Source: Candidatus Krumholzibacteriota bacterium (GTDB lineage Bacteria; Krumholzibacteriota; Krumholzibacteriia; LZORAL124-64-63). Taken from it: a stretch of 18,232 nucleotides of DNA. How positions within the stretch are numbered: position 1 is the stretch's first letter; each line of letters opens with the position of its first letter. The stretch spans positions 1 to 18,232 of the forward strand of contig JBDLKA010000075.1 of the NCBI GenBank assembly GCA_039714075.1. Reading direction: 5' to 3'. The translations under genes and the position numbers were made by a program. Below, in pieces: positions 1 through 17,491 of this stretch. The notes below the pieces were generated by a model, which made no database searches, was not told the DNA's origin, and worked only from the letters and a program-made list of their open reading frames with translations.

Positions 1-560
1 TGGATGCCGATCCCACCGGCCCCGATGCAAACTGCCAGATCACCGGCGGCCAGTCCCGAGCTGCGCACCGACTGGAAGGGCGTGGTGATGGCGTCGGCAA
101 CCACCGACAGCTCCCACAACTCGTGCTTGGCCATGACCGCTTCAGGCACCGGGCACACGTATCGGGAGGGCACCGTCACATGGGTGGCGAATCCTCCGTG
201 GCGATCGTTGCCGGGCATGACCTGGGCCGGGCAGATGCGCCCCTGACCACCCTGGCATAACTCGCACTCGCCGCAGGGCATGACCGCGGGCACGAGCACG
301 GCCTGGCCAAGCAGGGTCTCGTCCACGCGGTCGCCCAGTTTGACGACCTTGCCGCTGATCTCGTGACCCAAAGCCAGGGGCAGCGGCGCCCGGGTGGGAA
401 CGCCCATGTGAAGGAAAGAGATATCGGTATGGCACACGCCGCAGCCGGCGACTTCGACGACCACTTCGCCGGCCGGCGGAGTGGCCAGGGTCTCGGTGAC
501 GGATTCGCAGGGCTGGCCCTGGGCCGTCATGACCCAACGGGTGACTTGCAATTCACTCAT
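1..560 (-). CDS. had: 6-hydroxycyclohex-1-ene-1-carbonyl-CoA dehydrogenase (Zn-dependent MDR family); 3' end outside window
   Basis: Not in the ORF track because it runs off the edge. Manual translation from ATG 560 gives MSELQVTRWVMT...VAGCGVCHTD...LPLALGHEISG...PAVMPCGECELC...ICPAQVMPGND..GGFATHV...VVADAITTPFQ...IGAGGIG. Catalytic and structural Zn motifs and Had-like segments are present. ATGA overlap with the upstream stop (557-559); dch/oah context. Confidence 0.88.
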   Translation of the reverse strand, partial: MSELQVTRWVMTAQGQPCESVTETLATPPAGEVVVEVAGCGVCHTDISFLHMGVPTRAPLPLALGHEISGKVVKLGDRVDETLLGQAVLVPAVMPCGECELCQGGQGRICPAQVMPGNDRHGGFATHVTVPSRYVCPVPEAVMAKHELWELSVVADAITTPFQSVRSSGLAAGDLAVCIGAGGIGI

Positions 561-1369
561 CGGTTCTCTCCTATCTGGCTGAGGGGATGGTTCTGTTCCT
601 GGAAAACCCACAGCGCGGCTCCCACGGCCCCGGCCAGGATGGGTTGGGGAATGGCTTCGACATGGTTTCCGGTCTTGTTCGCGATGGCCGTCAGCACGCC
701 GGGGAAGTATTCGGCCACCCCGCCGGTCACGAAGACCGGATCGGTGAAGCGCCCGATCTCGATGACGCGGTCGGCGATGGAGTTGATGCAGCCGAGGGCC
801 ACCGATTCCCGCGAAACACCTTCACGCAGTTTTTCCAGGATGTCCTGCCCGGAGAACATGCTGCAGTAGCTGCCCACCTCGCAGGACTCGTCGGTACGGC
901 CGGCCATTTCCTGCAGATGACTGGGGTGCACGTCGAGATGGCGGGCGGCGAAGATCAAAAACGTACCGATGCCCGCGGCGCAGCGGCGCAGGGTCTGGAT
1001 TCCCGTGGGCCGGCCCTGGTCGTCGACCTGGATCGCCTTGGGGTCGCGGCCGCCGATATCGATGACGCACATGGCCTTTTGATGATGGTGGAACGCGCCC
1101 AGGGCGTGGCAGGCCGCATCACCCAGAAAGGTCGAGGCCATGGGCACGCAGTTTTCGGCGAAACCCGTGGCGCAGATGCCGGCCAGGTCACCTTCGCTCA
1201 CTTGGGCGTCGTCCAGGGCGATGGGAAAAGCTTCACTCACCCGGTCCTGGAAATAACCCCTGCGGGCCACGATGGAGTTGCCCAGCAGGACACCCTGGTC
1301 GTTGACCACGGCTACCTTGATGCACTCGGTGCCCACGTCTATACCCACGCTGATTTTCGGCTCTGACAT
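557..1369 (-). CDS. BadF/BadG/BcrA/BcrD-family ATPase (acyl-CoA dehydratase activase / class I benzoyl-CoA reductase ATPase-type subunit), divergent
   Basis: Motifs GIDVG, ATG, CHALG, IDIGG.D.K, CAAG.G.FL, second Cys in SYCSMF, TGGVA and GAVGAAL. GGAG-type RBS upstream. Confidence 0.85.
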   Translation of the reverse strand: MSEPKISVGIDVGTECIKVAVVNDQGVLLGNSIVARRGYFQDRVSEAFPIALDDAQVSEGDLAGICATGFAENCVPMASTFLGDAACHALGAFHHHQKAMCVIDIGGRDPKAIQVDDQGRPTGIQTLRRCAAGIGTFLIFAARHLDVHPSHLQEMAGRTDESCEVGSYCSMFSGQDILEKLREGVSRESVALGCINSIADRVIEIGRFTDPVFVTGGVAEYFPGVLTAIANKTGNHVEAIPQPILAGAVGAALWVFQEQNHPLSQIGENR

Positions 1370-1377
1370 GGGTCCTC

Positions 1378-3696
1378 CTATCCTTTTGCCCTGGATTCTC
1401 CGGCCCCGGCGGCCAGTTCCTGGATCTCGATGAAGTCGCGCAGTTTCTGCATCACCTGGTTCATGGAGAACAGGCGCAGGTCATGGGTGTCGCCTTCGAG
1501 GACCAGCGCCTTCAACCCGGTGCGACGACCGAGGCGGACTTCCAGACCGTAGCGGACATTGCTTTGGGAAGGCGTCGTGCGTCCTTCGTGGTAGATGACT
1601 CCGTCCACGCCGAAGTCGTTGAAGGCGGTCACCAGGTGATCTTCCTTCCAGGCGTCGGAGCGGTTGTGGAAGATGCCCGTGTAGACCCCCGCCATGCTCT
1701 CGATGGGGTTCTTGGGGTCGATGCCGGGCAGGGCGGCGATGCTGCAGTAGGTCGACCCCACCACGGCCACCTTGTGGTTCAGGAACAGGTCGGCCAAGGG
1801 TCGCAGGGCCGGCCAGATGGGCGGTCCTTCCCAGTAGAAGCGGAACCGTTCACCCGGCACCGCGGCCATTCCGTTGGCCACCCGGTCCTGCACCTCGGCC
1901 TTGAGCAGGGTGTAGTATTCCACCGCTTCGGGTGTGCCGCGCATGATGATCGCCGGCGCCAGGTGGATCAGGGTGTCGAAGAAGGTCAACGGCGAGGGGA
2001 CCTGGCGGCACAATTCAAGGATCTCTCCCCACAAACGGTTGCACTTGTTGGACAGGCGGACCACCTCGGCCAGCTTGTCGTAGTCCAGTTTGCGGTCGAA
2101 GTGTTTCTCCAGGTTTTCCACCATCTGCAGAATCTGCAGGGTGGCCGCGCCCACTTCCAGCTCGCCGACTTCGTTCAGCGAGGTGGAGGGATGCAAACCC
2201 AGCACGGGTTTGTCGAAGTGCCTTCCGTAGTATTCGAACCAGCGGATCAGCTCGTTGCCGTAGTTGGTATTGTAGGCCAGGACATCCGGCGGCGGGGGAC
2301 CTTCGATGTCGTGCACCGACACCAGGGGGCTGTCCCCTTCGAGCATGGCGCCGATATCGCTGGCCATGGCGCTGTTGGCGAACTGGGAGAACCCTTCCTG
2401 CAGGGCGCGGGGGATATACAGGCCCGATTGCCGGCTGGCTCCGATCAGGGCCGCGTGGTTCTCGGGAAAATAGACCGCCAGGCCCAGGGCGCGCAGGATT
2501 TCCACGGGCCCGGTGCCCGAACACCAGGCCACCGGTCGGGCGGGGTCGTTTCTGGCTTCTTGAAGATCACGGTAATACCCCGTGATCAGCTTCTTCAGCT
2601 TGGGCGCGGTTTCCAGGGGCACGCGGCTGTCGGGCATGCCGCCGCCGGGCGCCGGACGAATGGGCCGCAGGGCCTGGGCCGAACGCTTCTGCGGCGCGGC
2701 TCCGGGAGCCCCGTTTTCATCCCCGTTCCGGGCGGCCGCTCGCAGGGTCGCCGCCACCTCCTGCTTGCGCAGGAAGCTCACGTTTTCCCGCGAGTGGATG
2801 AAGTTGACCAGACCGCGGTTGTGGGGCGCGTCCAGACCCAGTTTTTCCGCTTCGCGCACCACCGCGCCGTTGATCGCGTCGACTTCGGTGCGGTAGGAGC
2901 GCGCCAGATCCTGCCACATACTGGGCCGGTTCTTGCCCAGGGCCTTCTGCGAGCCGACAACCGGCCGGTAGGGGTCCTCTTCATCGACGATGGGCACGCC
3001 GCGCGCCTTCATCACCGCGATGATCTCCATGCACAGATCCCGCATGAAATCCTGCAGATGGGGATCGTCCAGAAGTTCGCGGCAGGTCAGGCCCGTCAGG
3101 GCGGAGACGGGATTGACCACGGCGTTGTGCAGCAGCTTTTGCCAGATCACGTTGTCGATCTGTTCCGCTACTTCGGTGTTCAGGCCCGCTTTACGGAACA
3201 CCTCGCCCACCGCCAGGATCTCCGGGGTGACCTTGCCGTCGTAGGGGGCGATCTGGATCGGCTTGATGCCCGGCCGGTAGCGGATCCGGTTCGGTCCGAC
3301 GTGCTGGATGCTGTGGTAGGTGATTCCGCTCAGCACCTGGCGCGGTTCGATGATCTCGGCCATGGTGTCGGTGTTGCCGATGCCGTTCTGCATGGACAGG
3401 ACGAAGGTGTCCGGCCCGATCACGGGCAGGCAGGCGCGCAGGGCGGGTTCGGTCTGGTAGGTCTTCACCGAGACGAAAACCAGGTCGGCCACGGGCAGTC
3501 CCTCGACGCTGGTGGCCACTTTCACCGGCACGCAGGTCTCGCCCTTGTTGCCTTCGGCCACGAAAAGGCCCGTTTCGTTCAGAAGCTGGGTGCGGGCCTC
3601 GTTGATCTCGATGAGAGTGACGTCTTCGCCGCCGGCGGCCAGCTGCGCACCGACCAGTCCGCCCAGAGCCCCGGCGCCGACAATGACGATCTTCAT
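1378..3696 (-). CDS. Fusion protein: N-terminal ketopantoate reductase (PanE/ApbA) domain, Pro/Ala/Gly linker, C-terminal 2-hydroxyacyl-CoA dehydratase/benzoyl-CoA reductase subunit-like (HGD-D) domain
   Basis: N-half has GAGALG, VKTYQ, QNGIG, WQKLLHNAVVNP, SMWQD and TEVDAING. C-half has AWCSG..P.EILRALG..VYFPENH, PDVL, R.YWEGPPIW, DGVIYH and LEGD..D.R. ATG 3696 preferred (GGAG RBS, ATGA overlap with dch stop) over the track start at 3708. Confidence 0.85.
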   Translation of the reverse strand: MKIVIVGAGALGGLVGAQLAAGGEDVTLIEINEARTQLLNETGLFVAEGNKGETCVPVKVATSVEGLPVADLVFVSVKTYQTEPALRACLPVIGPDTFVLSMQNGIGNTDTMAEIIEPRQVLSGITYHSIQHVGPNRIRYRPGIKPIQIAPYDGKVTPEILAVGEVFRKAGLNTEVAEQIDNVIWQKLLHNAVVNPVSALTGLTCRELLDDPHLQDFMRDLCMEIIAVMKARGVPIVDEEDPYRPVVGSQKALGKNRPSMWQDLARSYRTEVDAINGAVVREAEKLGLDAPHNRGLVNFIHSRENVSFLRKQEVAATLRAAARNGDENGAPGAAPQKRSAQALRPIRPAPGGGMPDSRVPLETAPKLKKLITGYYRDLQEARNDPARPVAWCSGTGPVEILRALGLAVYFPENHAALIGASRQSGLYIPRALQEGFSQFANSAMASDIGAMLEGDSPLVSVHDIEGPPPPDVLAYNTNYGNELIRWFEYYGRHFDKPVLGLHPSTSLNEVGELEVGAATLQILQMVENLEKHFDRKLDYDKLAEVVRLSNKCNRLWGEILELCRQVPSPLTFFDTLIHLAPAIIMRGTPEAVEYYTLLKAEVQDRVANGMAAVPGERFRFYWEGPPIWPALRPLADLFLNHKVAVVGSTYCSIAALPGIDPKNPIESMAGVYTGIFHNRSDAWKEDHLVTAFNDFGVDGVIYHEGRTTPSQSNVRYGLEVRLGRRTGLKALVLEGDTHDLRLFSMNQVMQKLRDFIEIQELAAGAGESRAKG

Positions 3697-4448
3697 GCGT
3701 TTCTCCATTCGGGAGCGCGTTTGCCGTAGAAGGCTTCGATGCCTTCGACCGGATCGGCGGAGGTCATCAGATCCTCCAGGAAGACCTTTTCGGCCTGCTC
3801 CAGCCGGGCGGCGAAGTTGCCGGGCCGGCTCGCCTTGAGGGTCCGCGTGTTCAGGCGCAGGACCAGGGGGCTGGCGGCGCGGAAATCGTTCAGGGTGTTT
3901 TCCAGGGTGTCGTTCAGTTCCTCGGCCGCGACCACCCTGCTGACCAGGCCCATGTCGGCCATCTCGGCGGCGGTGTAGGGCCGGCCCGAGCAGGTGATTT
4001 CCATGGCCCGGGCGCGTCCCACCAGGTCCGGCAGCACGACCACGCCCACGGGCGCGAAAAATCCCAGGCGGATTTCCGGCTGGCCGAACTTGGCCTTCTC
4101 CGCGGCCAGCAGCACGTCCGCCATCAGGATGAGCTCGAACCCGGCGCCCATGGCCGCGCCGCCCACAGCCATCACCACGGGCACTTCCAGGGCGTCCAGT
4201 TTGCGGAACAGGCGGCCGAAGGATTCGATCATATCGGCGGCCTGTTCGGGGCGGTGTTCGCCCACGTCGGCGCCGGCGCAGAAGGCCTTGCCTTCGGCGG
4301 TGACGGCCACGGCCTTGATGCTGCCGTCGCCGGCCACGGTTTCCAGCAGCCCGCTCATGTGGTCCATCACCGCGGCGGACATGATGTTCACCGGGGGATT
4401 GTTCAGGTGGAGATAGGCGACATCGTTTTCCACGCGGTAATCGATCAT
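3693..4448 (-). CDS. dch: Cyclohexa-1,5-diene-1-carbonyl-CoA hydratase (crotonase family)
   Basis: LNNPPVN, FCAGADVGEH, GAGFEL and FGQPEIRLGFFAP (Dch-like). Start ATG 4448 has an AGGAG RBS and ATGA overlap; pathway context. Confidence 0.78.
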   Translation of the reverse strand: MIDYRVENDVAYLHLNNPPVNIMSAAVMDHMSGLLETVAGDGSIKAVAVTAEGKAFCAGADVGEHRPEQAADMIESFGRLFRKLDALEVPVVMAVGGAAMGAGFELILMADVLLAAEKAKFGQPEIRLGFFAPVGVVVLPDLVGRARAMEITCSGRPYTAAEMADMGLVSRVVAAEELNDTLENTLNDFRAASPLVLRLNTRTLKASRPGNFAARLEQAEKVFLEDLMTSADPVEGIEAFYGKRAPEWRNA

Positions 4449-4909
4449 GTTGATTCTCCTGATTCGGGGCCGGTTTTCACCCAGGTGGTGCCGGGTTTTT
4501 CCAGTGTGTAATGGACCTTGATGTCCGGGGATTCCTCGCACAGGCGGGGCACCACCTGCACGGGCATGTCGATGGTGATTCCGTCCGGTGCGATCGTGTC
4601 GCCGAAGCCGGCCAGCAAACGCCCGCCTTCTTCCAGGTCGACCACGCCCAGATTGAAGGGCGCCTCTTTCTCGAATCCGGCCGGAGCGGCGTCGATGGTG
4701 GTGAAGGTCATCAGGGTGCCCCTGCCGCTCATTTCGGTGAACGCGAACTCACCCTGGAGGCAGGCCGGGCAGTCGGCGCGGGGCGGAAAACTCAGGTGAC
4801 CGCAGGCGGTGCAGGTCGAACCCATCAGGCGTCCGGCCCTCAGGTGGGCGGCGAAACCGTCAACCTTGGTGTGAGGGCAAAAATTTACTTTTCCAAACCA
4901 TTCGAACAC
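4445..4909 (-). CDS. DUF35 Zn-ribbon/OB-fold protein (thiolase partner)
   Basis: CTACG..FPPR..CPAC zinc ribbon followed by OB-fold segments (G.L.TFT, VDLEEG.R). Directly downstream of the thiolase; GTG start. Confidence 0.88.
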   Translation of the reverse strand: MFEWFGKVNFCPHTKVDGFAAHLRAGRLMGSTCTACGHLSFPPRADCPACLQGEFAFTEMSGRGTLMTFTTIDAAPAGFEKEAPFNLGVVDLEEGGRLLAGFGDTIAPDGITIDMPVQVVPRLCEESPDIKVHYTLEKPGTTWVKTGPESGEST

Positions 4910-4913
4910 GGCG

Positions 4914-6074
4914 TCAATCCTTTTTGAAGACGTTCACGAAACAGTACTGGCCGATACCGCCCACATTGTGGGTCAGGCCGACGTCGGCGTCCGGCACCTG
5001 TCTGGCCTCGCCGGCTTCACCGCGCAGTTGGCGCACCATTTCGCAGGCCATGGAAACGCCGGTGGCCCCGACCGGATGGCCTTTGGCTTTGAGCCCGCCG
5101 TCCACGTTCACGGGGGTCGCGCCCCCGATGTACGATTGCTTCTCCGCCACGAAAGCCCCGCCTTCGCCCTTCCCGCAAAAACCCAGGTCTTCGTAGGCCA
5201 TGATCTCGGCGATGGTGAAGCAGTCGTGCACTTCAGCAACCTTCACGTCACCAGCCGAAATGCCGGCCATTTTGTAGGCCTGGGCCGCCGCTTCTCTGGC
5301 TGAAGGCAAACCTGTCAATTCGGGGCGGCGCAATACGGACATGCTCGCCGTCGCGCAGCCGTTGCCATCGAGCCACACTTCCCTGCCCGCGCCCAGCTTG
5401 CGCGCGGCGCGTTCCCCGGCCAGGATGACACAGGCCGCGCCGTCGGCGTTGGCGCAGCAGTCGTAGACCGTCAACGGGGCGGCGACCGGATCCGAGGCCA
5501 GCGCCTTGGCCGTGGTGATTTCCTTCTGGAAGAGCGCCTTGGTGTTGCGGGCGCCGTAGTGGTGGTTCTTGACCGCGACCTGGGCCAGGTGTTCGTTCGT
5601 GGTGCCGAACTCGTGCATGTGGCGCCGGGCGAACATGGCGTAGTAGCCGGGGAAGGTGGTTCCGAAACCCGATTCCCACTGAACGTCGCCGACGCGCCCC
5701 ATCAGGGCCAGGATCTCGGCGGTTTCCAGTTCGGTCATCTTCTGGCAGCCGATCACCGCCACCACGTCGTGCACCCCGGCCTTGATGGACAGCCAGGCGG
5801 TGCGGATCGCCGCCGAGCCCGAGGCGCAGGCGACCTCGGTCAGCCAGGTCGGTTTGGGGTTCAGATTGAGGTATTCCTGGATGACTCCGGCCAGCGAACG
5901 CTGCTTGTGGTATTCGGGTACCGAGCCGATCACGGTGGCCTCGATGACGTCCGGGTCCAGGTCGCCGTCTTTCAGGGCGGCCCGGTAAGCCTCGAAGGCG
6001 AGCTCCTGCACCGTGGCGTCGCTGCGCCGTCCGAAAACCGTATGGCCGATGCCGACAATGCCGACTCTGCTCAT
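4914..6074 (-). CDS. SCP2-type thiolase (acyl-CoA C-acyltransferase)
   Basis: ACASGS catalytic Cys, EVHDCF, N.DGGL..KGHP.GATG and HNVGG. ATG 6074 with GAGG RBS. Confidence 0.9.
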   Translation of the reverse strand: MSRVGIVGIGHTVFGRRSDATVQELAFEAYRAALKDGDLDPDVIEATVIGSVPEYHKQRSLAGVIQEYLNLNPKPTWLTEVACASGSAAIRTAWLSIKAGVHDVVAVIGCQKMTELETAEILALMGRVGDVQWESGFGTTFPGYYAMFARRHMHEFGTTNEHLAQVAVKNHHYGARNTKALFQKEITTAKALASDPVAAPLTVYDCCANADGAACVILAGERAARKLGAGREVWLDGNGCATASMSVLRRPELTGLPSAREAAAQAYKMAGISAGDVKVAEVHDCFTIAEIMAYEDLGFCGKGEGGAFVAEKQSYIGGATPVNVDGGLKAKGHPVGATGVSMACEMVRQLRGEAGEARQVPDADVGLTHNVGGIGQYCFVNVFKKD

Positions 6075-6083
6075 GAACACCTC

Positions 6084-6851
6084 TTAAATGTATTGACCAC
6101 CATCGACGCGGATCACCTGCCCGGTCACGTGCCGGGAGAAATCCGAACACAGGAAAGCCACCACATGGGCGATGTCCGCCGGGTCGGCCAGGCGGCCCAG
6201 CATGGATTCGCGCACGGCGGCGTTGCGGAACTCGGGCGCCAGTCCGGCGGCCATTTCGGTGGCCACCATGCCCGGGGCCACGGCGTTGACCGTGACGTCG
6301 AACTTGCCCAGCTCGCGGGCCAGGGTCCGGGTCAGGGCGTTCACCCCGCCCTTGGCCGCGGTGTAGTTGGCCTGGCCGAACTTGCCCCGTTCCCCGTTGA
6401 TCGAGGAGATATTGACGATGCGGCCGCGCCGCTGGTCCTTGAACAGCCGGGCCGCCGCGCGGTTGAAGGTGAAGTAGCCGGTCAGGTTCACCGCCAGGAC
6501 ATCGTCCCAGGCCTTGTCCGACATGTTCCACACCACGGCGTCGCGGGTGATGCCCGCGTTGCAGACCAGCATGTCCAGACCGCCCAGCTCGGCCACGGTG
6601 CGGGTCACGGCATCCTCGGTGGCAGCCGAATCAGCCGCATCGGCTTCCAGCGGCAGGGCCCGCCGGCCCAGTTTCTCGATGGCGCCCACGGTTTCGTCCG
6701 CCTCGCCGGGTTCGCCCACATAGGTCAGGGCCACATCGCAGCCCTGCCGCGCCAGTTCCCGGCAAACCGCGGCGCCGATGCCCCGGCTGCCGCCCGTCAC
6801 CAGGGCGACCCGGTCGTTCAAGCCCAGTTGCAGGTCCGCATTCCGCGCCAT
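6084..6851 (-). CDS. Short-chain dehydrogenase/reductase (FabG/PhaB-like 3-hydroxyacyl-CoA dehydrogenase)
   Basis: TGGSRGIG, NAGITRD, ISS, YTAAK (YxxxK), VNAVAPG and TGQVIRVDGG. Confidence 0.9.
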   Translation of the reverse strand: MARNADLQLGLNDRVALVTGGSRGIGAAVCRELARQGCDVALTYVGEPGEADETVGAIEKLGRRALPLEADAADSAATEDAVTRTVAELGGLDMLVCNAGITRDAVVWNMSDKAWDDVLAVNLTGYFTFNRAAARLFKDQRRGRIVNISSINGERGKFGQANYTAAKGGVNALTRTLARELGKFDVTVNAVAPGMVATEMAAGLAPEFRNAAVRESMLGRLADPADIAHVVAFLCSDFSRHVTGQVIRVDGGQYI

Positions 6852-6854
6852 CGC

Positions 6855-7496
6855 CTACCGCCCTTCTCCGGTCAGTCCGTTCATGACCATGGCCACCATT
6901 TCCTCGCCCAGTTCTCCGGCGTGATCGTCCTTGGCGGGGTCGTACCACATGAACACCCAGTTCAGCATGCCGAAGATGAACAGGGTGCGATGCCGGACCT
7001 GCCGGTCGGTTTCCGCCCGCTCGGCGGGTACCCCGCTCATTTCGCCGACCACCTGGGCCATGCACAGGTAATAGCGCCGCCTGAGCTGGGCGATGTTCTC
7101 GTATCTTTCCCCTTGCAGTGATTCCAGTTCGAAGGTGCAGACCTTCAGCTCGTTGAAGTGGCTGATGAAGTAGGCGAGATGGTTCTTCACCAACCGGCGC
7201 AGGCGTTCTTCGGCCGGGCCGCCGCCGGCCACGGCCTGTTCCTGCATTTCCAACAACGAACCGAAGGTCTTTTCCTGGATCAGGAAGAGCAGGTCTTCCT
7301 TGCTCTTGAAGTAGTAGTACATGCCGCCCAGGCTGAAGCCGCTGGCGGTGGCCACGTCGCGAATGGAGGTCTGGCTGAAACCGCGCGTGGCCATCAGTTC
7401 GGCCGAGACGGTCAGCAACCGGTCCAGCTTGGGGGCCGTGCGCGAAGTCCGGCCGCCGCTCGGGACGGGGATGTCATGGGGAGCGCCCTCAGCCAC
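6855..7496 (-). CDS. TetR/AcrR family transcriptional regulator (KstR2/PaaR-like C-terminal domain)
   Basis: HTH GFSQTSIRDVA...GGMYYYFKSKEDLL and C-terminal GMLNWVFMWY. GTG start overlaps the upstream stop. Confidence 0.9.
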   Translation of the reverse strand: MAEGAPHDIPVPSGGRTSRTAPKLDRLLTVSAELMATRGFSQTSIRDVATASGFSLGGMYYYFKSKEDLLFLIQEKTFGSLLEMQEQAVAGGGPAEERLRRLVKNHLAYFISHFNELKVCTFELESLQGERYENIAQLRRRYYLCMAQVVGEMSGVPAERAETDRQVRHRTLFIFGMLNWVFMWYDPAKDDHAGELGEEMVAMVMNGLTGEGR

Positions 7497-10329
7497 GTTT
7501 TTCTTCCTTCTGTCTCTTCAAACCGGCCAGGATCTTTTCCGGGGTGATGGGCAGTTCGGTGACGCGCACCCCGCAGGCGTCGTAGATGGCGTTGCCGATG
7601 GCGCCGAGGATGGGCGGCAGGCAGCCCTCGCCGATTTCCTTGGCCCCGAACGGACCCCGCGGTTCGTAACTTTCGACGGCCTTGGAAATGATGTGCGGCG
7701 ACTCGGCAATCGTCGGCACCAGATAGCCGTGCAGATCCGGATTGACCAGCGACCCGTCCGGCCGGACCAGGGTGTCCTCCATCAGCGTTTCACCCAGGCC
7801 CATGATGATGCCGCCCTCGACCTGGCCGTGGAAGGTCACGGGATTGATCACGGTGCCGGAATCGCTGAAGTCGTAGAACCTGTCCACGTCGACGTACCCT
7901 GTTTCCAGGTCGACGGTGACCTCGCACACGGCGGTGGAAAAGCTGTAGGCGGGCGAGGTGCCCACCGCGGCTCCCTTGTAATTGCCGCCCAGGCCCGGCG
8001 GCGGCGAGTAGTGGCCGGTGCCCGTCACGGGTCCGCCGCGGGAGAAGACCTTCCGCGCGACTTCATCCCAGGCGATTTCCACCTCGGGGTGCTGGGAGAC
8101 GAAGATCTTTCCGTCCCGCGCTTCCAGCCCGTGGACATCGCAGCCCAGCATTTCGCCGGCCATCTTCAACAGCTGGGATTTCACCTCGGCCGCGGCCATG
8201 CGCACGGCGTTGCCGGCCATCAGCGTCACGCGGCTGGAATATGACCCCAGGTCCGTGGGCGCGAGCACCGAATCGCTTTCCACCAGCCAGATCCGGTGGT
8301 AGGGGATGCCCAGTTCTTCGGCCGCGATCTGGGGCAGGATGGTGTTGCAGCCCTGTCCGATTTCCGCCGCGGCGATGTGCAGCGAGGCGGCCATGCCGTC
8401 TTCGGACAAACGGATCAGGGCGTTGGAGTGCGGGAATTTCGAACGGTAGATGGGATAACCCGCGCCCGACACGAACCCTCCGCAGCCCACGCCGATGCCC
8501 TTGCCCTCGGGCAGTGATTTCCGCTTGGCGTCCCACTCGGTGAACTCGCGCGCCTGCTCCAGGGTGGCCGTGAACTCGCACGACGAGATGTCCAGGTCGT
8601 TGCAGGTCAGGGTGTCCGGCTGCATGGCGTTCTTCAGCCGCACGTCGAAGGGATCCAGGCCCAGCTTCTCGGCCGCCATGTCCATCAGCGTCTCGAAGGC
8701 GTAACGCGGCTGGGGCACGCCGTGGCCGCGCATGGCTCCGCTGGCCGGCAGGTTCGTGTACATGCGGAAGCCGTCGTATTTGTAGTTGGGAATGTTGTAC
8801 AGGGTCGGCACCATGGAACCGGCGTAGTAGGCGGTCACGATCCCGTACGAAGTGTAGGCGCCGCCGTCGAGCAGGATGTGACTCTGGCAGGCGGCGATGG
8901 AGCCGTCCTTCTTCAGCCCCAGCTTCATGTCGATGTACTGTTTGTGGCGGCCGCGGAAGTGGTGGACCATTTCCTCGCGGGAGTACTTCATCATCACCGG
9001 ACGGCCGGTCAGGCGGGCGAAGACCACCGCGCACAGATCCAGCGGCGTGGCCTCGGCCTTGACCCCGAAACCGCCGCCCACGCAGGGGCTGATGGTGCGG
9101 ATGTCGCCCTGGGGAATGTCGAACACCCGGTTGAGCATGTGCCGCAGATAATGGGGCGCCATGGAGGAGGACCAGATGGTCAGCTTGCCCGCGTGGTGTT
9201 CCCAGCGCGCGACCGCGGCGTGGGGTTCGATGGGGGACTGGAACGGCCGGTTGCCGATGAAGGTGTCCTCGACGATGACCTCGGCCTCGTCGAAGCCCTG
9301 GTCCACGTCGCCGAAGTGCCATTCAACGCGGGTGTTGATGTTGTTGGCGTACTTCTCTTCCTCGGGATGGATCTGCGGCGCGCCGTCCTTGATGGCCTCG
9401 CGTGGATCGAAAACCGCCGGCAGTTCTTCGTACTCGACCTTGATCAGCTTGACGGCCTCTTCGGCGGTGGTTTCGTCCTCGGCCACCACGGCCGCGACCT
9501 CGTCGCCGACATACCGCACGCGATCGACGGCCAGGATGTGCTCGTCGTACCGGGCGGGCGAGACCCCGTACTTAATTTCGGGCACATCCTTGGCCGTGAT
9601 GACCGCCAGCACGCCGGGCAGGGCCTCGGCGGCGCTGGTGTCGATGCTCTTTATCAGTCCGTGGGCGATGGTGCTGCCCAGCAACTTGCCGTGGACCATG
9701 TCCGGCAGTTTCAGGTCGGCGGTGTACTGCTCGCGGCCGGTGACCTTGTCCGGACCGTCATAGCGGGTTACGCCCTTGCCCACGACGCTGTGGTCGCGTT
9801 CCTGGTCGCGCTCGTCGTGTTCGCCGGGATCGGTATCCAGCTCGACGCCTTCGAATTTTTGCCAGTTGCCCACCGCTTCCATGACGCGCGGATAGGTGCC
9901 GCAGCGGCACAGGTTGCCGCCCAGGGCCTTCTTGATCTCGGCGGGCTCGGGCTTTGGGTTCTTCTCGATCAGTTCCAGGCTGGAAATGATCATGCCGGGG
10001 GTGCAAAAACCGCATTGCAGGGCGCCGTGCTTGATGAAGCTCTTCTGCAACGGATGCAGGTCGTTGCCGTCGGCCACGCCCTCGATAGTTTTGATCTCGG
10101 CCCCGTCGCAGGTGGCGGCCAGCACCAGGCACGAATTGACGGCCTTGCCGTTCATCAGCACGCTGCAGGCCCCGCAGTCGCCCACGTCGCAGCCGCTCTT
10201 GGTGCCGGTCAGCCCCAGATCTTCGCGGATGACCTGTTTGAGGGTGGCCTCCGGCGGCACGGCCAGCATGTGGCGCCGTTCGTTCACGGTGATGGTGATC
10301 ATTACGGCTTGTTCGTTCCGGCGGCCCAT
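7489..10329 (-). CDS. Xanthine-oxidase-family molybdoenzyme, fused 2x[2Fe-2S] and molybdopterin-binding subunit; 4-hydroxybenzoyl-CoA reductase gamma+alpha-like
   Basis: N-terminal GTKSGCDVGDCGAC...NSC and QCGFCTPG...NLCRC. Mo domain has GGGFG, GGAY.SYG, YTN.P..GAMRGHG, FVSG, IGQG.NT, D.GSYSSRVT.M.GNA and GPFGAKEIGEG, resembling recalled HcrA. Start 10329 by TGATG overlap (10302 also possible). Confidence 0.8.
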   Translation of the reverse strand: MGRRNEQAVMITITVNERRHMLAVPPEATLKQVIREDLGLTGTKSGCDVGDCGACSVLMNGKAVNSCLVLAATCDGAEIKTIEGVADGNDLHPLQKSFIKHGALQCGFCTPGMIISSLELIEKNPKPEPAEIKKALGGNLCRCGTYPRVMEAVGNWQKFEGVELDTDPGEHDERDQERDHSVVGKGVTRYDGPDKVTGREQYTADLKLPDMVHGKLLGSTIAHGLIKSIDTSAAEALPGVLAVITAKDVPEIKYGVSPARYDEHILAVDRVRYVGDEVAAVVAEDETTAEEAVKLIKVEYEELPAVFDPREAIKDGAPQIHPEEEKYANNINTRVEWHFGDVDQGFDEAEVIVEDTFIGNRPFQSPIEPHAAVARWEHHAGKLTIWSSSMAPHYLRHMLNRVFDIPQGDIRTISPCVGGGFGVKAEATPLDLCAVVFARLTGRPVMMKYSREEMVHHFRGRHKQYIDMKLGLKKDGSIAACQSHILLDGGAYTSYGIVTAYYAGSMVPTLYNIPNYKYDGFRMYTNLPASGAMRGHGVPQPRYAFETLMDMAAEKLGLDPFDVRLKNAMQPDTLTCNDLDISSCEFTATLEQAREFTEWDAKRKSLPEGKGIGVGCGGFVSGAGYPIYRSKFPHSNALIRLSEDGMAASLHIAAAEIGQGCNTILPQIAAEELGIPYHRIWLVESDSVLAPTDLGSYSSRVTLMAGNAVRMAAAEVKSQLLKMAGEMLGCDVHGLEARDGKIFVSQHPEVEIAWDEVARKVFSRGGPVTGTGHYSPPPGLGGNYKGAAVGTSPAYSFSTAVCEVTVDLETGYVDVDRFYDFSDSGTVINPVTFHGQVEGGIIMGLGETLMEDTLVRPDGSLVNPDLHGYLVPTIAESPHIISKAVESYEPRGPFGAKEIGEGCLPPILGAIGNAIYDACGVRVTELPITPEKILAGLKRQKEEKRG

Positions 10330-11204
10330 CAGCACTTCCCTTCCGCACGTTCGCACGCCTGCGTCAGCGCGCGGGCGGTCAACACCTGGACCACGTCGCG
10401 GCGGTACTGTTCGCTGCCGCGCAGGTCGGAGATCGGTTGCGCCTCGGCGGCGGCCTGGGCGCCGGCTTCGGCAAAGAGTTCGTCGCCGGGGTTTTTTCCA
10501 GCCAGCAGGTCGGCGGCTTTTGTGGCCGACAAGGGGACAGGTCCCACCGAACCGAGATAGATGCGGGCTTCGGCGATGATCCGGTCTTCCATGCGGACCC
10601 AGGCGGCGACCGAGGCCACGGCCAGCGCGGAACCCCGCCGCAGGGAAAAGCGCTGGAAACTGGCGCCGGCTCCTGTCGGCTGTTTGGGAAAGCGGATCTC
10701 GGTAAGGATCTCGCCGGGATTGAGCACCGTCACCCGCGGGGCGAGCACGAACTCACGGGCGGCCACGGTGCGGCTGCCGTCGGTTCCGGTGAGCACGACT
10801 TCGGCGTCGGCGGCGCAGGAAATGGGCGGGGTATCCGAACAGGGCACGCCGCAGCAGAAATTCCCGCCCATGGTGCCCAGATTGCGGATCTGGCGGCCGG
10901 CCATGGTCTCGATCGCGTCGCTCAGGGCGGGGAAATGGGATTTCACTTCAGCGGACTCGGCGATCTCGCTCAAGGGCACCAGCGCCCCGATGCGCAGCAC
11001 ATCCTCTTCCCTGGTGATGTGTTTCAGTTCGTCCAATCCCCCCAGGGAGATCACGTGGCACACGGACTTGCGGCCCGAGCGCAGATCCACCAGCAATTCG
11101 GTCCCACCGGCCAGATAGGCCGATTTGCGGCCGTATTCGAGGCCCAGGGCGCAAGCTTCGGCGGTGGTCGAGGGCTGATGATAGTTGAAACGACCAAAAG
11201 ACAT
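10329..11204 (-). CDS. FAD-binding subunit (CoxM/XdhB/HcrB-like) of the molybdoenzyme
   Basis: LAGGTEL, LRIGAL, QIRNLGTMGGN, PGEIL.EI and PISDLRGSEQYRR. First gene of the operon. Confidence 0.9.
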   Translation of the reverse strand: MSFGRFNYHQPSTTAEACALGLEYGRKSAYLAGGTELLVDLRSGRKSVCHVISLGGLDELKHITREEDVLRIGALVPLSEIAESAEVKSHFPALSDAIETMAGRQIRNLGTMGGNFCCGVPCSDTPPISCAADAEVVLTGTDGSRTVAAREFVLAPRVTVLNPGEILTEIRFPKQPTGAGASFQRFSLRRGSALAVASVAAWVRMEDRIIAEARIYLGSVGPVPLSATKAADLLAGKNPGDELFAEAGAQAAAEAQPISDLRGSEQYRRDVVQVLTARALTQACERAEGKC

Positions 11205-11251
11205 GTAGTTACGTCGCCTTTGTGGATGAGATGCGGGTGAGGTGATGGATT

Positions 11252-11267
11252 TCGAACTGACGTTCGA
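11252..11267. promoter_or_regulatory. Inverted-repeat operator TCGAAC-N4-GTTCGA
   Basis: Perfect 6-4-6 inverted repeat immediately downstream of the minus-strand -10 box, covering the predicted start site of the large operon. Confidence 0.6.
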
Positions 11268-11268
11268 T

Positions 11269-11298
11269 AGACTACGCCAAACGGGGGTGCCGGGTCAA
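11269..11298 (-). promoter_or_regulatory. Sigma70-type promoter of the hcr...had operon
   Basis: Minus strand TTGACC (11298-11293), 18 nt, TAGTCT (11274-11269), with an AT-rich tract upstream. Confidence 0.6.
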
Positions 11299-11386
11299 TA
11301 AAAATCGGGGTTCAAAAAGTGACGGTGACGCTCCTCCCGAAACATTTCCCCCAATAAGTTTAAATGCATTATTTTCTTAACTTTAC

Positions 11387-11415
11387 TTGCCTTTTTCGCT
11401 AAATTTTCGTATATT
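11387..11415 (+). promoter_or_regulatory. Sigma70-type promoter of the HNH gene
   Basis: TTGCCT (11387-11392), 17 nt, TATATT (11410-11415), in an AT-rich island 40 nt before ATG 11456. Confidence 0.6.
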
Positions 11416-11455
11416 GATTTCACCTCCCAAAGGACCCATTTCCAAGGATGGAATC

Positions 11456-12535
11456 ATGCCCAATATACTCGAATTTCGCCCCAATCTGGGTGCCGACCAA
11501 GCCCATATCGCCCTTAAAGACAGTATTGAGACCCTGGACCATGCCCAGCATTGTGCCCTGCTGTGGTTCGGCGAGATCATGCGCCGAAAGCTGTTCCGCG
11601 ACCTGGGGTACGGCACCATGCGTTCCTATGCCACCGAAGCGCTTGGATTCTCCCCGACCCGGGCCGGGGATTTCATACGTCTGGCCAGGAAACTGGAATC
11701 TTTGCCGATGGTGAAAGAGGAAGTGGCCGCCGGCAAGCTGGGCTACACCAAGGCGCGCGAGATTGCTTCGGTGGCCGACCCGACCAACGAGAAGGAATGG
11801 GTGAAGGTGGCGAAGGAGAAATCACGGCGCGAACTGGAGGCCACGGTCCGGCGGGCGAAAAAACAGGCTGTCCAGGAACGTCGAGAGAACCCCGCCCAGA
11901 GTGAGTTGATGCCGCGGCCGGAATCGCCCGCGCCCCCGGCGGCTGTGCCCGTGCGCGTGGGGTTCGAACTCACTCCGGCCCAGTATGCCCGTTACGAGGC
12001 GATGCTCGCGAAGATCGGGCACCGCGGCAGCAAGGCCGACCTGTTGCTTGAGATGGTCGAGGCGCTGTTGACCAAAGACGAAAACGCCCCCCGGGGGGCG
12101 TTTGCCGATCCCCACTATCAGATCCACGTCCACGAATGTCCGGCCTGCGCCAAGGCCACCGTCCAAACGCCGCCCGGTGAAATGGAGCTCACAAAACCCG
12201 AGGTCGAAACCGCCAGGTGCGACGCTCGAATCCACGAATCAGGCAAGCGCAACAAAGCCACCATTCCGCCCCGGATCCGCCGCGAGGTCCTGGCCCGCGA
12301 TCGGCACCACTGCCGCCGCAAGGGGTGCCACCACACCAGGTTTCTGGATATCCACCACATCGTCCCACGGTCGGCGGGCGGTAACAACGATCCGGAAAAC
12401 CTGGTCACGCTGTGCCCCGCCTGCCACGCCCTGTGTCATGAGCGCGGGGGAAATCTGGGCGGAATTTTGACTCAACCGTCGGAAGATACCGGTGCCGCAA
12501 ACCCCAGCACGTACCCGTCGGCGTCCAGGCAATAA
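11456..12535 (+). CDS. HNH endonuclease with DUF222-like helical N-terminal region (probable selfish/mobile gene)
   Basis: C-terminal IPPRIRREVLARD...C...GC....LDIHHIVPRS.GG.ND.ENLVTLC..CH...H, N-terminal LGY...Y..E.LG..P...IRLAR.L..LP.......GKLGYTK, and an internal CPAC. ATG 11456 preferred because TTG 11387 is the -35 box. Confidence 0.85.
   Translation: MPNILEFRPNLGADQAHIALKDSIETLDHAQHCALLWFGEIMRRKLFRDLGYGTMRSYATEALGFSPTRAGDFIRLARKLESLPMVKEEVAAGKLGYTKAREIASVADPTNEKEWVKVAKEKSRRELEATVRRAKKQAVQERRENPAQSELMPRPESPAPPAAVPVRVGFELTPAQYARYEAMLAKIGHRGSKADLLLEMVEALLTKDENAPRGAFADPHYQIHVHECPACAKATVQTPPGEMELTKPEVETARCDARIHESGKRNKATIPPRIRREVLARDRHHCRRKGCHHTRFLDIHHIVPRSAGGNNDPENLVTLCPACHALCHERGGNLGGILTQPSEDTGAANPSTYPSASRQ
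12081..12103. repeat. 22-bp perfect palindrome AAACGCCCCCCGGGGGGCGTTT (12082-12103) inside the HNH gene; 18-mer repeated at 12882-12899
   Basis: Read directly. AAAACGCCCCCCGGGGGG occurs at 12081-12098 and 12882-12899. Confidence 0.85.
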
Positions 12536-12855
12536 CCCGCCAGGTCGCCCCAGTCACGGGCAGCACATTCACTGAGCAGCCGGGCCCCCGCCGTGACCGC
12601 CCGTCGCAGGCACGCCCGCGGGTCGTCGACCAGCAGGTAGACCTCCGCGCGCAGGCCGCCATCACCGAAAGCCGGCTCGGGCAACGCCTCGCCCAGCAAC
12701 TTCTGGATCCCGGCCTCGGGCATCAGACCCAGCGATGACCCGTCCAGCAATTCAAACTCGGTCATACCCGGCACATCCAGCACCGGCTCCCGCTCCAGAA
12801 TGGCGGCGTAAAAATCCCGGCTGGCCTGCTGGTCGGACACGTAAAGGATGAACAT
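12472..12855 (-). CDS. VOC/glyoxalase family protein
   Basis: MFILYVSDQQASRDFY..IL..P.LDVPGMTEF...EVYLLVDD...WGD.AGYCLDADG. ATG 12855 has an AGGAG RBS; the track's 5' extension runs through a terminator. Confidence 0.82.
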   Translation of the reverse strand: MFILYVSDQQASRDFYAAILEREPVLDVPGMTEFELLDGSSLGLMPEAGIQKLLGEALPEPAFGDGGLRAEVYLLVDDPRACLRRAVTAGARLLSECAARDWGDLAGYCLDADGYVLGFAAPVSSDG

Positions 12856-12879
12856 GGCGGACTTCTCCTGCGACAATGG

Positions 12880-12913
12880 AAAAAACGCCCCCCGGGGGGT
12901 GGACCCGGGGGGC
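12880..12913 (-). terminator. Intrinsic terminator after oah
   Basis: Minus strand GCCCCCCGGG-TCCACCC-CCCGGGGGGC-GTTTTTT (10-bp stem plus U tract), about 30 nt after the oah stop. Confidence 0.7.
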
Positions 12914-12942
12914 AATCGTCATCAACAACCGGGCCGAACGGC

Positions 12943-14076: not shown

Positions 14077-14108
14077 GGGACCGTCTCCTTAAAGGCTGAA
14101 GTCGAAAA

Positions 14109-15275: not shown

Positions 15276-15339
15276 GCATCCTGACCTTGTTGGAATTGCG
15301 GAAGAATTAACTCCCAAGGTGTTTTTTTGGCCAAGGCGC

Positions 15340-15368
15340 ACCATATCGGGTTTGGGAGGGGATTGCAA
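15340..15368 (-). promoter_or_regulatory. Sigma70-type promoter of gcdH-oah
   Basis: Minus strand TTGCAA (15368-15363), 17 nt, TATGGT (15345-15340). Confidence 0.55.
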
Positions 15369-15586
15369 GGGGGCGAGGCGGCTCCCTGAGGCAGCGGAAG
15401 GCATATCAGGCAAAAACATCAAATTCAGGATAAATCCTATCTTAAATCAGGATATTCTCTACCAAAGAAGTTCTATTTATGTTATGGTGTACCAAATGAT
15501 CTTTAATCAGGCCGCTTTATGGCGCTATTAAGCGGTCTGGGTCGAAATATGGGGAATCTCTGGTAATCAAATTGGAGGGGATCAAA

Positions 15587-17353: not shown

Positions 17354-17378
17354 TCTTCGGTTCTGATTCCCTCCTTTG

Positions 17379-17409
17379 AAAAGCCCCGGGCTTCGGCCCG
17401 GGGCTTTTT
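17379..17409. terminator. Intrinsic, potentially bidirectional terminator
   Basis: AAAAGCCCCGGGC-TTCG-GCCCGGGGCTTTTT, 25 nt after the lipoprotein stop. Confidence 0.9.
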
Positions 17410-17434
17410 CTGTTGCCGCCGCGCGGATAATTAT

Positions 17435-17479: not shown

Positions 17480-17491
17480 CGGAGGTTTCAG

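Follow-up and report, generated by a model that had tools for sequence, protein, structure and literature searches.

A ketopantoate-reductase-family domain fused to an HGD-D domain without iron-sulfur cluster ligands in benzoyl-CoA gene clusters of Krumholzibacteriota and other bacteria

The closest described counterparts of the gene treated here are the 2-hydroxyacyl-coenzyme A (CoA) dehydratases HadBC, the (R)-2-hydroxyisocaproyl-CoA dehydratase of Clostridioides difficile (structure 3o3m), and FldBC, a related phenyllactate dehydratase, with their activases HadI and FldI. Their pathways run from a 2-oxo acid to the (R)-2-hydroxy acid, on to its CoA ester and then to the enoyl-CoA, and the clostridial systems use for the reduction an enzyme of the D-isomer-specific 2-hydroxy-acid dehydrogenase family. 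To the same superfamily belong the class I benzoyl-CoA reductases (BCR; BcrCBAD, BzdNOPQ and MbdONPQ) and the double-cubane cluster protein (DCCP, 6eno) with its ATPase reductase; in passages of PMC11971306 it is proposed that the family diversified as iron-sulfur (Fe-S) sub-clusters were lost step by step, from DCCP by way of BzdNO to the 2-hydroxyacyl-CoA dehydratases (HAD). We report here on an 18,232-nucleotide stretch of DNA from a Candidatus Krumholzibacteriota bacterium (contig JBDLKA010000075.1, positions 1 to 18,232; hereafter the window), in which a single gene joins a domain of the ketopantoate reductase (KPR, PanE) family to an HGD-D domain of that superfamily whose alignment indicates the loss of all three cysteines of the catalytic cluster. 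Gene and product are called the fusion below.

With HadBC and FldBC the system shares the HGD-D fold, an adjacent ATP-dependent activase (act1) and aligned cluster-ligand cysteines, the last in a stand-alone HGD-D protein (HGD-D2) found beside the fusion in related genomes, and we propose the same pathway logic for it. It differs in its putative second subunit, which in HadBC is of the HadC or beta type with a [4Fe-5S] cluster and here would be an alpha-type paralogue without cluster ligands, fused to a 2-oxo-acid reductase of the KPR family. There are two activase paralogues (act1 and act2) here and one there, a CoA ligase (in relatives) in place of the CoA-transferase, and the hosts are Krumholzibacteriota, Gemmatimonadota, Acidobacteriota and Myxococcota metagenome-assembled genomes (MAGs) with benzoyl-CoA genes rather than amino-acid fermenters. 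The class I BCRs resemble it in superfamily, in their two HGD-D and two ATPase proteins and in their location in benzoyl-CoA clusters, but their equivalog models fail, there is no subunit of BcrC or BzdN type, the fusion has no [8Fe-9S] site and HGD-D2 has no equivalent of His131. The N-terminal half recalls PanE/ApbA and the D-2-hydroxy-acid dehydrogenases of the KPR family (D-mandelate dehydrogenase 3wfi, 5x20 and 8wl1) in its Rossmann and helical domains, its catalytic residues and its template modelling (TM) scores of 0.76-0.91; unlike these it is fused to a 410-aa HGD-D domain, falls short of every ketopantoate-reductase equivalog and lies in a catabolic, not a biosynthetic, operon. The likeness to DCCP lies in the superfamily, the ATP-driven electron donor and two extra cysteines of HGD-D2 (C31 and C288) where a second sub-cluster could sit, whereas the match is weak (29-46 bits, cut-off 350) and DCCP is a homodimer with two [8Fe-9S] clusters, one subunit here having none. 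Because the HadB, BcrB/BzdO and ketopantoate reductase equivalogs all fail, the fusion set falls inside the superfamily and outside every characterised enzyme family. Judged from its sequences, it stands one step beyond the trend of sub-cluster loss, with a subunit free of any cluster, an alpha-type duplicate and a fused NAD(P)H reductase.

The fusion gene, its domains and its distribution

The fusion is encoded without interruption on the minus strand, at 3708..1378 (776 aa) according to the list of open reading frames (ORFs) and the translation, with a TAG stop at 1378-1380; the whole window has a G+C content of about 64%. A second possible start, ATG 3696 (772 aa), overlaps the TGA of the upstream crotonase gene as ATGA, has a GGAG 6 nt 5' of it, and corresponds to residue 5, at which the ESM Atlas entry of the protein begins, so that 3696 is the likelier start. 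An earlier reading of the sequence alone (the original prediction) had described an uninterrupted frame of about 772 codons, which is confirmed. Residue numbers refer to the 776-aa form throughout, and the genes of the window were named with Pfam and NCBIfam profiles. On the fusion, Pfam finds ApbA at residues 7-157 (122 bits, cut-off 22), ApbA_C at 184-307 (118 bits, cut-off 23) and HGD-D (PF06050) at 401-762 (159 bits, cut-off 28). The gene and its immediate neighbours are as follows.

1378..3696 (alternative start 3708), minus strand: whole fusion gene (ORF, start/stop overlap, Shine-Dalgarno)
2779..3696, minus strand: KPR/PanE-family NAD(P)H oxidoreductase domain, residues 5-310 (Pfam, TIGR00745, Foldseek)
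2626..2778, minus strand: flexible Ala/Arg/Gly/Pro-rich linker, residues 311-361 (alignment, model confidence)
1414..2625, minus strand: HGD-D domain of alpha (HadB/BcrB/BzdO) type, without the three [4Fe-4S] cysteines (Pfam, match to HadB)
557..1369, minus strand: act1, activase-type ATPase of 270 aa, 8 nt 3' of the fusion (Pfam BcrAD_BadFG, TIGR00241)
3..560, minus strand: had (6-hydroxycyclohex-1-ene-1-carbonyl-CoA dehydrogenase), 5' part, running off the window (TIGR03201)
3693..4541, minus strand: crotonase-family enoyl-CoA hydratase (Pfam ECH_1)

The activase passes its model (TIGR00241, 144 bits, cut-off 125) and the had fragment scores 232 bits over positions 1-179 of TIGR03201, half the model, so that the predicted order of activase and had downstream of the fusion stands, as does the placing of the gene in a benzoyl-CoA-pathway operon. 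The had start (ATG 560) overlaps the act1 stop as ATGA, and on account of these start/stop overlaps and the tight spacing we regard crotonase, fusion, act1 and had as translationally coupled. The upstream gene had been called dch; the overlap with it is there, but the label is plausible rather than proven, since the dienoyl-CoA hydratase model TIGR03189 gives 158 bits against a cut-off of 292 and generic enoyl-CoA hydratase models score about equally. It may be a dienoyl-CoA hydratase (dch) or the hydratase for the enoyl-CoA that the module would produce.

A search over 5.8 billion proteins returned 396 matches among 8000 scored candidates. Among the 120 clusters listed, 118 combine PF06050, PF02558 and PF08546 in proteins of 748-806 aa with 60-92% identity, the other two being shorter fragments, and the only names given to them at source are '2-dehydropantoate 2-reductase' and 'hypothetical'. 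A genome scan, with one genome per species and loci taken from the best 80 of 103 confirmed stretches, places the fusion in at least 79 loci from at least six phyla, in MAGs that carry the labels Krumholzibacteriota (88-92% identity), Eisenbacteria, Acidobacteriota, Gemmatimonadota, Myxococcota/Anaeromyxobacteraceae and others; in the Atlas the same architecture is represented by one cluster of 77 members. The possibility left by the original prediction that no other genome carries the fusion thus falls away, whereas its remark that no characterised protein is built in this way agrees with our failure to find a description of the architecture in the open-access literature. When the window protein is aligned with 69 full-length copies (70 rows), 122 of 306 columns of the PanE part and 134 of 404 of the HGD-D part are at least 90% identical, as are 2 of 51 in the linker. 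This pattern of conservation marks the fusion as real and under selection, and its family as a conserved, widespread and uncharacterised bacterial gene.

The linker, being unconserved and of low complexity, is where a sequencing or assembly error might have joined a panE-like gene to an HGD-D gene, and a singleton fusion of another kind, with unfused relatives only, lends some colour to such an artefact. Against it stand the same uninterrupted form in 118 of the 120 clusters, from several independent sources, the 69 full-length copies from 79 independent loci and the Atlas cluster of 77, and we see practically no chance that the fusion is an artefact. The singleton (P0125, 728 aa, from one Myxococcota MAG) joins PanE to an HGD-D domain of another kind, one that has all its ligand cysteines and belongs to the HGD-D2 clade; the other 119 relatives listed for it, about 412 aa long, show no fusion and are common in MAGs of Bacteroidota, Ignavibacteria and Aminicenantes. 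We therefore rejected it as a second fused lineage: it is a weak hint of a neighbourhood of panE-like and HGD-D2 genes and could itself be an artefact.

The N-terminal domain looks catalytically intact from the alignment. N108, K191 (in WQKL), N195, N199, N260, S263 and E275 (in TEVD) are invariant in all 70 rows, and GxGxxG is kept in the 60 of 60 rows that cover it, in line with the glycine motif, lysine and glutamate that had been predicted; by analogy with the Escherichia coli KPR we take these seven residues to be the catalytic Lys and Glu and the Asn/Ser set that holds the 2-oxo-carboxylate. The broad subfamily model TIGR00745 (apbA_panE) is passed with 256 bits (cut-off 141), while no ketopantoate-reductase equivalog in NCBIfam is, the best (NF005091) reaching 179 bits against a cut-off of 252 and the others also falling short. 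Structural comparison with Foldseek gives TM scores of 0.87-0.91 with ketopantoate reductases and of 0.76-0.85 with D-mandelate dehydrogenases, KPR-family enzymes that act on aromatic 2-oxo acids. Since the equivalogs fail and the family also holds D-2-hydroxy-acid and D-mandelate dehydrogenases, the domain is most safely labelled an NAD(P)H-dependent enzyme that reduces a free 2-oxo carboxylic acid. The linker, predicted at about 50 residues, does span residues 311-361, is rich in Ala, Arg, Gly and Pro and varies from 35 to 58 aa across the 70 homologues. An AlphaFold2 model built on 69 sequences has a mean predicted local distance difference test (pLDDT) of 91.3, with values below 50 in a disordered stretch at 326-339, and a predicted TM score of 0.60, so that it gives no relative orientation or packing of the two domains.

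Cluster ligands, HGD-D2 and the gene neighbourhood

The C-terminal domain finds its best match in the Protein Data Bank (PDB) in HadB (3o3m_A, E = 6e-38), with a TM score of 0.92-0.94, the root-mean-square deviation being about 2.0 Å. Among the NCBIfam models it scores 169 bits with HadB, 117 with BcrB and 46 with BzdO (cut-offs 750, 486 and 448), and the beta-type models HadC, BcrC and BzdN list neither it nor HGD-D2; by these profile scores the domain belongs to the alpha (HadB/BcrB/BzdO) type. The catalytic cluster of BzdO, a [4Fe-4S], is held by Cys95, Cys128, Cys380 and a water, and HadB coordinates its cluster alike, according to passages of PMC11971306. When the window protein is aligned with 3o3m_A, it has Asn, Gly/Tyr and Thr (N445, G484 and T712) opposite the three cysteines of HadB. 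Across the 70 fusions the first ligand column holds mostly S (44), N (16), Q (3), P (3) and C (1), these five commonest residues accounting for 67 of the 70; the second holds G (66), S (3) and A (1), and the third A (26), T (18), S (18), C (7) and D (1). None of the three cysteines is kept in 62 of the 70 and one in the remaining 8, two being kept in no fusion, and the family alignment of the domain has no invariant cysteine at any position. For comparison, an exhaustive HMMER search (1293 matches at E up to 1e-3) yielded 112 representatives of the HGD-D family of at least 380 aa, and 103 of these keep all three. Read from these alignments, the HGD-D domain of the fusion has lost its [4Fe-4S] site. 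The original prediction was right to recognise an HGD-D-type domain, but missed that it is not a normal one.

A side observation concerns P0162, an unfused HGD-D protein of 413 aa on a long branch near the HGD-D2 clade, in which all three ligand cysteines are also replaced (Q, G and N), so that cluster loss may have occurred more than once.

HGD-D2 is a stand-alone protein of about 410 aa, 40-45% identical to the fusion domain. Its best solved relatives are HadB (E = 5e-51), MbdO and BzdO, with the ligand cysteines aligned, and all three are kept in 41 of 43 sequences. Its conserved cysteines are C31 (41/43), C80, C118, C288 (43/43) and C345, with C379 in 34 of 43; at the position of BzdO His131 the alignment has Val, the Glu being kept. 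Its NCBIfam scores (HadB 197-216 bits, BcrB 127-139, BzdO 72-76) all lie below cut-off, that of HadB being 750, and on present scores the fusion domain and HGD-D2 are both closest to the dehydratase alpha subunit HadB. We also observed, in HGD-D2 of locus L036 (13208-14440) and its 42 homologues, that C31 is found two residues ahead of where BzdO has Trp46, the residue that fills the lost sub-cluster site, and from its conserved cysteines it is possible that HGD-D2 carries a cluster larger than [4Fe-4S].

In a maximum-likelihood tree of 54 rows (a quick IQ-TREE run) the fusion HGD-D domains form one clade on a long stem, with a Shimodaira-Hasegawa-like approximate likelihood ratio (SH-aLRT) support of 100, nested in a 38-row clade (100) with the HGD-D2-type proteins, and genuine BcrB lies outside the latter. 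By this tree the cluster-less fused domain goes back to one old duplication in the HGD-D2 lineage. A complex prediction for the fusion HGD-D domain and HGD-D2 of locus L036, both supplied as alignments, scored 0.83, the best control scoring 0.00; the mark is reached by 116 of 157 solved pairs and by 2 of 215 mismatched ones, at least 96% of contacts are shared between the runs, and the partner has a pLDDT of at least 91. As HadBC and BzdNO are already solved, the model speaks for likeness to known heterodimers and not for binding. Together with the presence of HGD-D2 within 10 kb of the fusion in 44 of 62 loci, it leads us to infer a heterodimer of the two.

The neighbourhood was followed by tBLASTn of the window proteins against the 79 loci. 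Directly downstream of the fusion lies act1 in 68 of 68 loci with enough sequence, and the crotonase is directly upstream in 49 of 66. The bridging-cluster cysteine motifs (R-CA-G-GtFL and SYCSvF) are conserved in 69 act1 sequences, and both activase families, act1 and act2, keep these cysteines. HGD-D2 is adjacent to the fusion and act1 in 37 of 62 loci, followed by act2, a second activase about 33% identical to act1, so that all four genes stand together in these 37. After act2 or act1 comes a CoA ligase, AMP-forming in 18 loci (at least 54% identity), or in about 11 loci an ADP-forming acyl-CoA synthetase, in many cases accompanied by a sodium:solute symporter. In L004, L007, L009, L023 and L040 an operon of HGD-D2, act2, ligase and transporter lies 5-8 kb away on the opposite strand. 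The unit occurs outside the benzoyl-CoA setting as well: in the Anaeromyxobacter-like locus L062, fusion, act1, HGD-D2, act2 and an AMP-forming ligase form a unit with no had, oah or molybdenum (Mo) enzyme genes nearby, adjoining divergent FadB-like and thiolase genes, two sets of Liv-type ABC transporter genes and a ligase resembling PaaK (454 bits against a cut-off of 646 on the model for phenylacetate-CoA ligase), and a FadB-like gene is found in 20 loci. The conserved core of these loci can therefore be taken as a 2-oxo-acid reductase domain, two HGD-D paralogues, two activases and a CoA ligase, beside beta-oxidation genes. In L004 a conserved ORF of 513 aa that precedes HGD-D2 has no Pfam or PDB match and was discarded as the antisense frame of a FadB-like gene.

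Genuine BCR genes occur in the same clusters. Locus L024 reads fusion, act1, had, bcrC, bcrB, bcrA, bcrD and oah, with scores (cut-offs) of 441 (338) for had, 478 (421) for BcrC, 744 (486) for BcrB, 522 (578) for BcrA, 352 (312) for BcrD and 558 (464) for oah. Gemmatimonadota loci have BcrA/BcrD and a GNAT gene ahead of the Mo-enzyme genes (BcrD of L047 scores 342 bits, cut-off 312), and Bcr-like subunits at least 45% identical to the Bcr proteins of L024 or L047 are present in 18 of the 79 loci. With bona fide bcrCBAD alongside and all BCR models failing, we rejected the fusion as the benzoyl-CoA reductase of its cluster. In the portions of PMC10936416 that tabulate Prokka annotations, bcrA, B, C and D are counted once each in three Krumholzibacteriota MAGs, which also supplied loci L001, L016 and L033; these counts fit a separate BCR in the lineage of the window. 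The cysteine loss, the HGD-D2, second activase and CoA ligase nearby, and the coexisting bcrCBAD had all escaped the original prediction.

Proposed role and competing explanations

Our favoured reading, which we hold tentatively, is that the fusion is the cluster-less partner of an ATP-activated HadB-like (R)-2-hydroxyacyl-CoA dehydratase, its KPR domain supplying the (R)-2-hydroxy acid by reduction of a 2-oxo acid, which may be an arylpyruvate; in more general terms, it probably helps to feed 2-oxo or 2-hydroxy acids into anaerobic aromatic breakdown. From the observed domain identities, cysteine loss, conservation and synteny we infer a dehydratase chemistry and an order of steps. The KPR domain would reduce the free 2-oxo acid to the (R)-2-hydroxy acid, the CoA ligase whose gene stands next to act2 or act1 in relatives would form the thioester, the HGD-D2/fusion heterodimer, primed by ATPase, would dehydrate it through a ketyl radical by the HadBC/FldBC/HgdAB route to the enoyl-CoA, and the crotonase, dehydrogenase and thiolase of the cluster would beta-oxidise the latter. 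The C-terminal domain would be a duplicated alpha-type subunit, non-catalytic and the pseudo-symmetric partner of the cluster-bearing HGD-D2, and electrons would come from the activase-type ATPases act1 (in the window) and act2 (beside HGD-D2 in relatives). KPR-family enzymes give the D or (R) product, which is the stereochemistry used by 2-hydroxyacyl-CoA dehydratases. The reductase is present as the fused domain, and relatives have a CoA ligase, not a transferase, with none in the window.

With phenylpyruvate or 4-hydroxyphenylpyruvate, or the lactates, as substrates, the route would pass through cinnamoyl- or coumaroyl-CoA to benzoyl-CoA or 4-hydroxybenzoyl-CoA, the substrates of the neighbouring Mo enzyme and of BCR. 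An arylpyruvate is favoured because the module lies among 4-hydroxybenzoyl-CoA-reductase-like, had, oah and, in relatives, bcrCBAD genes; these compounds are the likeliest substrates we can name, by a guess from context that is doubtful and the least certain point of the proposal. The original prediction, which is partly supported as a whole, had as its second alternative a PanE domain acting on a 2-oxo acid, for instance an arylpyruvate, that feeds the pathway, and this comes close to our explanation. For a benzene degrader that reduces sulfate, exactly such a conversion, of phenylpyruvate through phenyllactyl-CoA and cinnamoyl-CoA to benzoyl-CoA, figures as a hypothesis in passages of PMC13416013, no dehydratase being assigned to it there. 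If the dehydratase reading holds, the family could form a new branch of the BCR-I/HAD group, in which one subunit is cluster-free and carries an NAD(P)H ketoreductase, and a single ATP-primed complex both makes and dehydrates the (R)-2-hydroxy acid, an arrangement that we think possible though rather unlikely.

Several observations weigh against the proposed dehydratase. The window itself, which ends inside had, holds no HGD-D2, act2 or CoA ligase, and 18 of 62 loci have no HGD-D2 within 10 kb, among them the closest relatives of the window (L001, L015, L016 and L017). In these four nothing HGD-D2-like is present within 3-8.6 kb, and in L017 the operon ends at had and is followed by unrelated genes; in L005 and L008, symporter and ADP-forming synthetase genes at the edge suggest that the locus is truncated. 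No equivalog cut-off of any characterised dehydratase is reached (HadB 169-216 bits against 750). Two activase paralogues are typical of the class I reductases with stoichiometric ATP coupling (BcrA/D), dehydratases using one homodimeric activator. By its alignment HGD-D2 has two or three more conserved cysteines than a HadB-type cluster would need, and a larger cluster would fit a reductase better; its C288 aligns by eye with a cysteine of the double-cubane protein 6eno. Finally, the crotonase, short-chain dehydrogenase/reductase (SDR) and thiolase can equally well be assigned to the ring pathway, as dch, as 3-hydroxypimeloyl-CoA dehydrogenase and thiolase, and, in L047, with a BadI-like second crotonase. 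They were therefore given up as proof of a beta-oxidation of cinnamoyl-CoA, a use weakened by that L047 gene (7444-8418), which is BadI/oah/MenB-like with 198 bits on the oah and 190 on the BadI model, both below cut-off.

This second crotonase is of some interest in itself, as copies of at least 76% identity are found in 24 loci, in Gemmatimonadota, Acidobacteriota and Eisenbacteria clusters that also have a thiolase of the classical type, with BcrA/BcrD and a GNAT gene upstream, an arrangement that recalls the bad cluster of Rhodopseudomonas.

A rival reading is a new four-subunit reductase of class I BCR type, made up of fusion, HGD-D2, act1 and act2, using ATP stoichiometrically and acting on a substituted aryl-CoA or an alicyclic CoA ester rather than on benzoyl-CoA, with the KPR domain reducing a keto group on its product or on a co-substrate. 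Two HGD-D and two ATPase proteins make up BCR as well, and the four genes are adjacent in the 37 of 62 loci; the bridging-cluster cysteines of both activase families, the five or six conserved cysteines of HGD-D2, more than HadB needs, and the position of the module between a dch-like gene and had suit such an enzyme, as do the automatic bcrA-D counts for Krumholzibacteriota MAGs in the available portions of PMC10936416. We nevertheless consider it unlikely, since the BCR equivalogs are far below cut-off (BcrB 117-139 against 486, BzdO 46-76 against 448) and genuine bcrCBAD stand alongside in 18 of 79 loci. Passages of PMC11971306 describe an [8Fe-9S] relay with six cysteines in BzdN, and Glu65 and His131 beside the [4Fe-4S]-OH2 of the catalytic subunit, whereas here the partner subunit would be without any cluster and HGD-D2 is without an equivalent of that histidine. 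Moreover, a hydride-transferring KPR domain with all its carboxylate-binding residues has no obvious role on a CoA ester. The loci without HGD-D2, and especially L024 and L011, in which fusion, act1 and had are directly followed by bcr genes, would instead be explained if fusion and act1 were self-contained, a homodimer acting without HGD-D2 in a chemistry new to the HGD-D family, for example by acting with NAD(P)H on an intermediate of the ring pathway that arises between dch and had, or by assisting or maturing the BCR encoded nearby; the tight translational coupling from crotonase to had is in keeping with this. An activase with intact cluster cysteines, however, needs a redox acceptor, of which the fusion has none, and we know of no precedent for such a system. 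The lack of HGD-D2 in a 10-kb flank is weak evidence because its operon may stand on the opposite strand at a distance of more than 5 kb, as in L004, L007, L009 and L040. We regard a self-contained pair as quite improbable.

There is very little likelihood, in our view, that the PanE domain is a true ketopantoate reductase which couples pantoate and CoA supply to a CoA-consuming pathway, with the HGD-D domain as a sensor of CoA or acyl-CoA. Such a function would agree with the pass on TIGR00745 (256 against 141) and the full set of KPR catalytic residues, with the presence of genuine ketopantoate reductases among the closest structures, one of which contains bound CoA (5ayv), and with an HGD-D domain that could still bind a CoA ester without its cluster and conserves the FPENHAALIGASR motif. 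Yet the ketopantoate-reductase equivalogs all fail (at best 179 against 252 bits), the KPR family also holds D-2-hydroxy-acid and D-mandelate dehydrogenases, and no other gene of pantothenate or CoA biosynthesis is present in the window or in the annotated loci. Nor would it account for the universal activase neighbour (68/68) and the HGD-D2/act2/ligase module. The supply of CoA precursors, which the original prediction had put forward, is thus unsupported, and the fusion partner, the neighbours and the relatives point to a catabolic radical-enzyme module.

Other genes of the window and meaning for the family

The remaining genes of the operon, and those upstream of it, are the following.

4445-4909, minus strand: DUF35/OB partner of the thiolase (Pfam/NCBIfam)
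4914-6080, minus strand: SCP-x-type thiolase (Pfam/NCBIfam)
6084-6851, minus strand: SDR (Pfam/NCBIfam)
6855-7496, minus strand: TetR regulator (Pfam/NCBIfam)
7489-10356, minus strand: fused 2Fe-2S and Mo subunit (4-hydroxybenzoyl-CoA reductase alpha model)
10329-11204, minus strand: FAD subunit of a molybdenum hydroxylase (Pfam/NCBIfam)
12943-14076: oah/bamA, upstream of the operon (575 bits, cut-off 464)
14109-15422, minus strand: acyl-CoA dehydrogenase, upstream, glutaryl-CoA-dehydrogenase-like

The Mo enzyme has its 2Fe-2S (gamma) and Mo (alpha) parts in a single ORF of 955 aa, which scores 904 bits on TIGR03194 (cut-off 994). Its FAD subunit is closer to XdhB (201 bits) than to the 4-hydroxybenzoyl-CoA reductase (4-HBCR) beta model (122 bits, cut-off 405), so that the enzyme may lack the extra Fe-S loop of 4-HBCR, and these scores suggest that it may have a substrate or direction other than that of a true 4-HBCR. 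Between this subunit and oah, the stretch 11205-12942 has a G+C content of 0.57-0.59 against about 0.65 and contains a plus-strand HNH endonuclease/DUF222 gene at 11387-12535 (Pfam HNH and DUF222, weak IscB-like HNH match). Since oah abuts the FAD-subunit gene in L017, L004 and L056, the stretch looks like a mobile insertion. The acyl-CoA dehydrogenase (210 bits, cut-off 470) has about 65 extra N-terminal residues before the Pfam domain in its longest ORF, and its true start is probably further in. Beyond it, at 15572-17353 on the plus strand, a lower-G+C stretch encodes a protein of 593 aa with a signal-peptide-like N-terminus, weak CarboxypepD_reg and SdrD_B matches below cut-off and no matching NCBIfam family. 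An Rfam scan of the window gave no matches.

The fusion belongs to the oxygen-sensitive radical enzyme family of benzoyl-CoA reductase and the 2-hydroxyacyl-CoA dehydratases, and is named in databases as '2-dehydropantoate 2-reductase' only, so that pathway surveys would count it as CoA biosynthesis, or its neighbours as 'bcr' subunits. It offers a natural experiment on the role of the second subunit and of its cluster, in which, if the heterodimer is as we propose, the second cluster would be dispensable and the subunit an alpha-type duplicate. The four genes are small, stand next to each other in many MAGs and are amenable to standard anaerobic expression and assay. If the proposed function is correct, respiring or facultatively anaerobic bacteria of at least six phyla would have a decarboxylation-free route for phenylalanine, tyrosine or aryl-lactates through cinnamoyl- or coumaroyl-CoA to benzoyl-CoA; in the passages of PMC13416013 that treat it, such a route has so far been hypothesised only, without an assigned dehydratase. 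Phyla of soil, sediment and subsurface (Gemmatimonadota, Acidobacteriota, Krumholzibacteriota, Myxococcota and Eisenbacteria) would then link the breakdown of aromatic amino acids or aryl-lactates to the benzoyl-CoA pathway.

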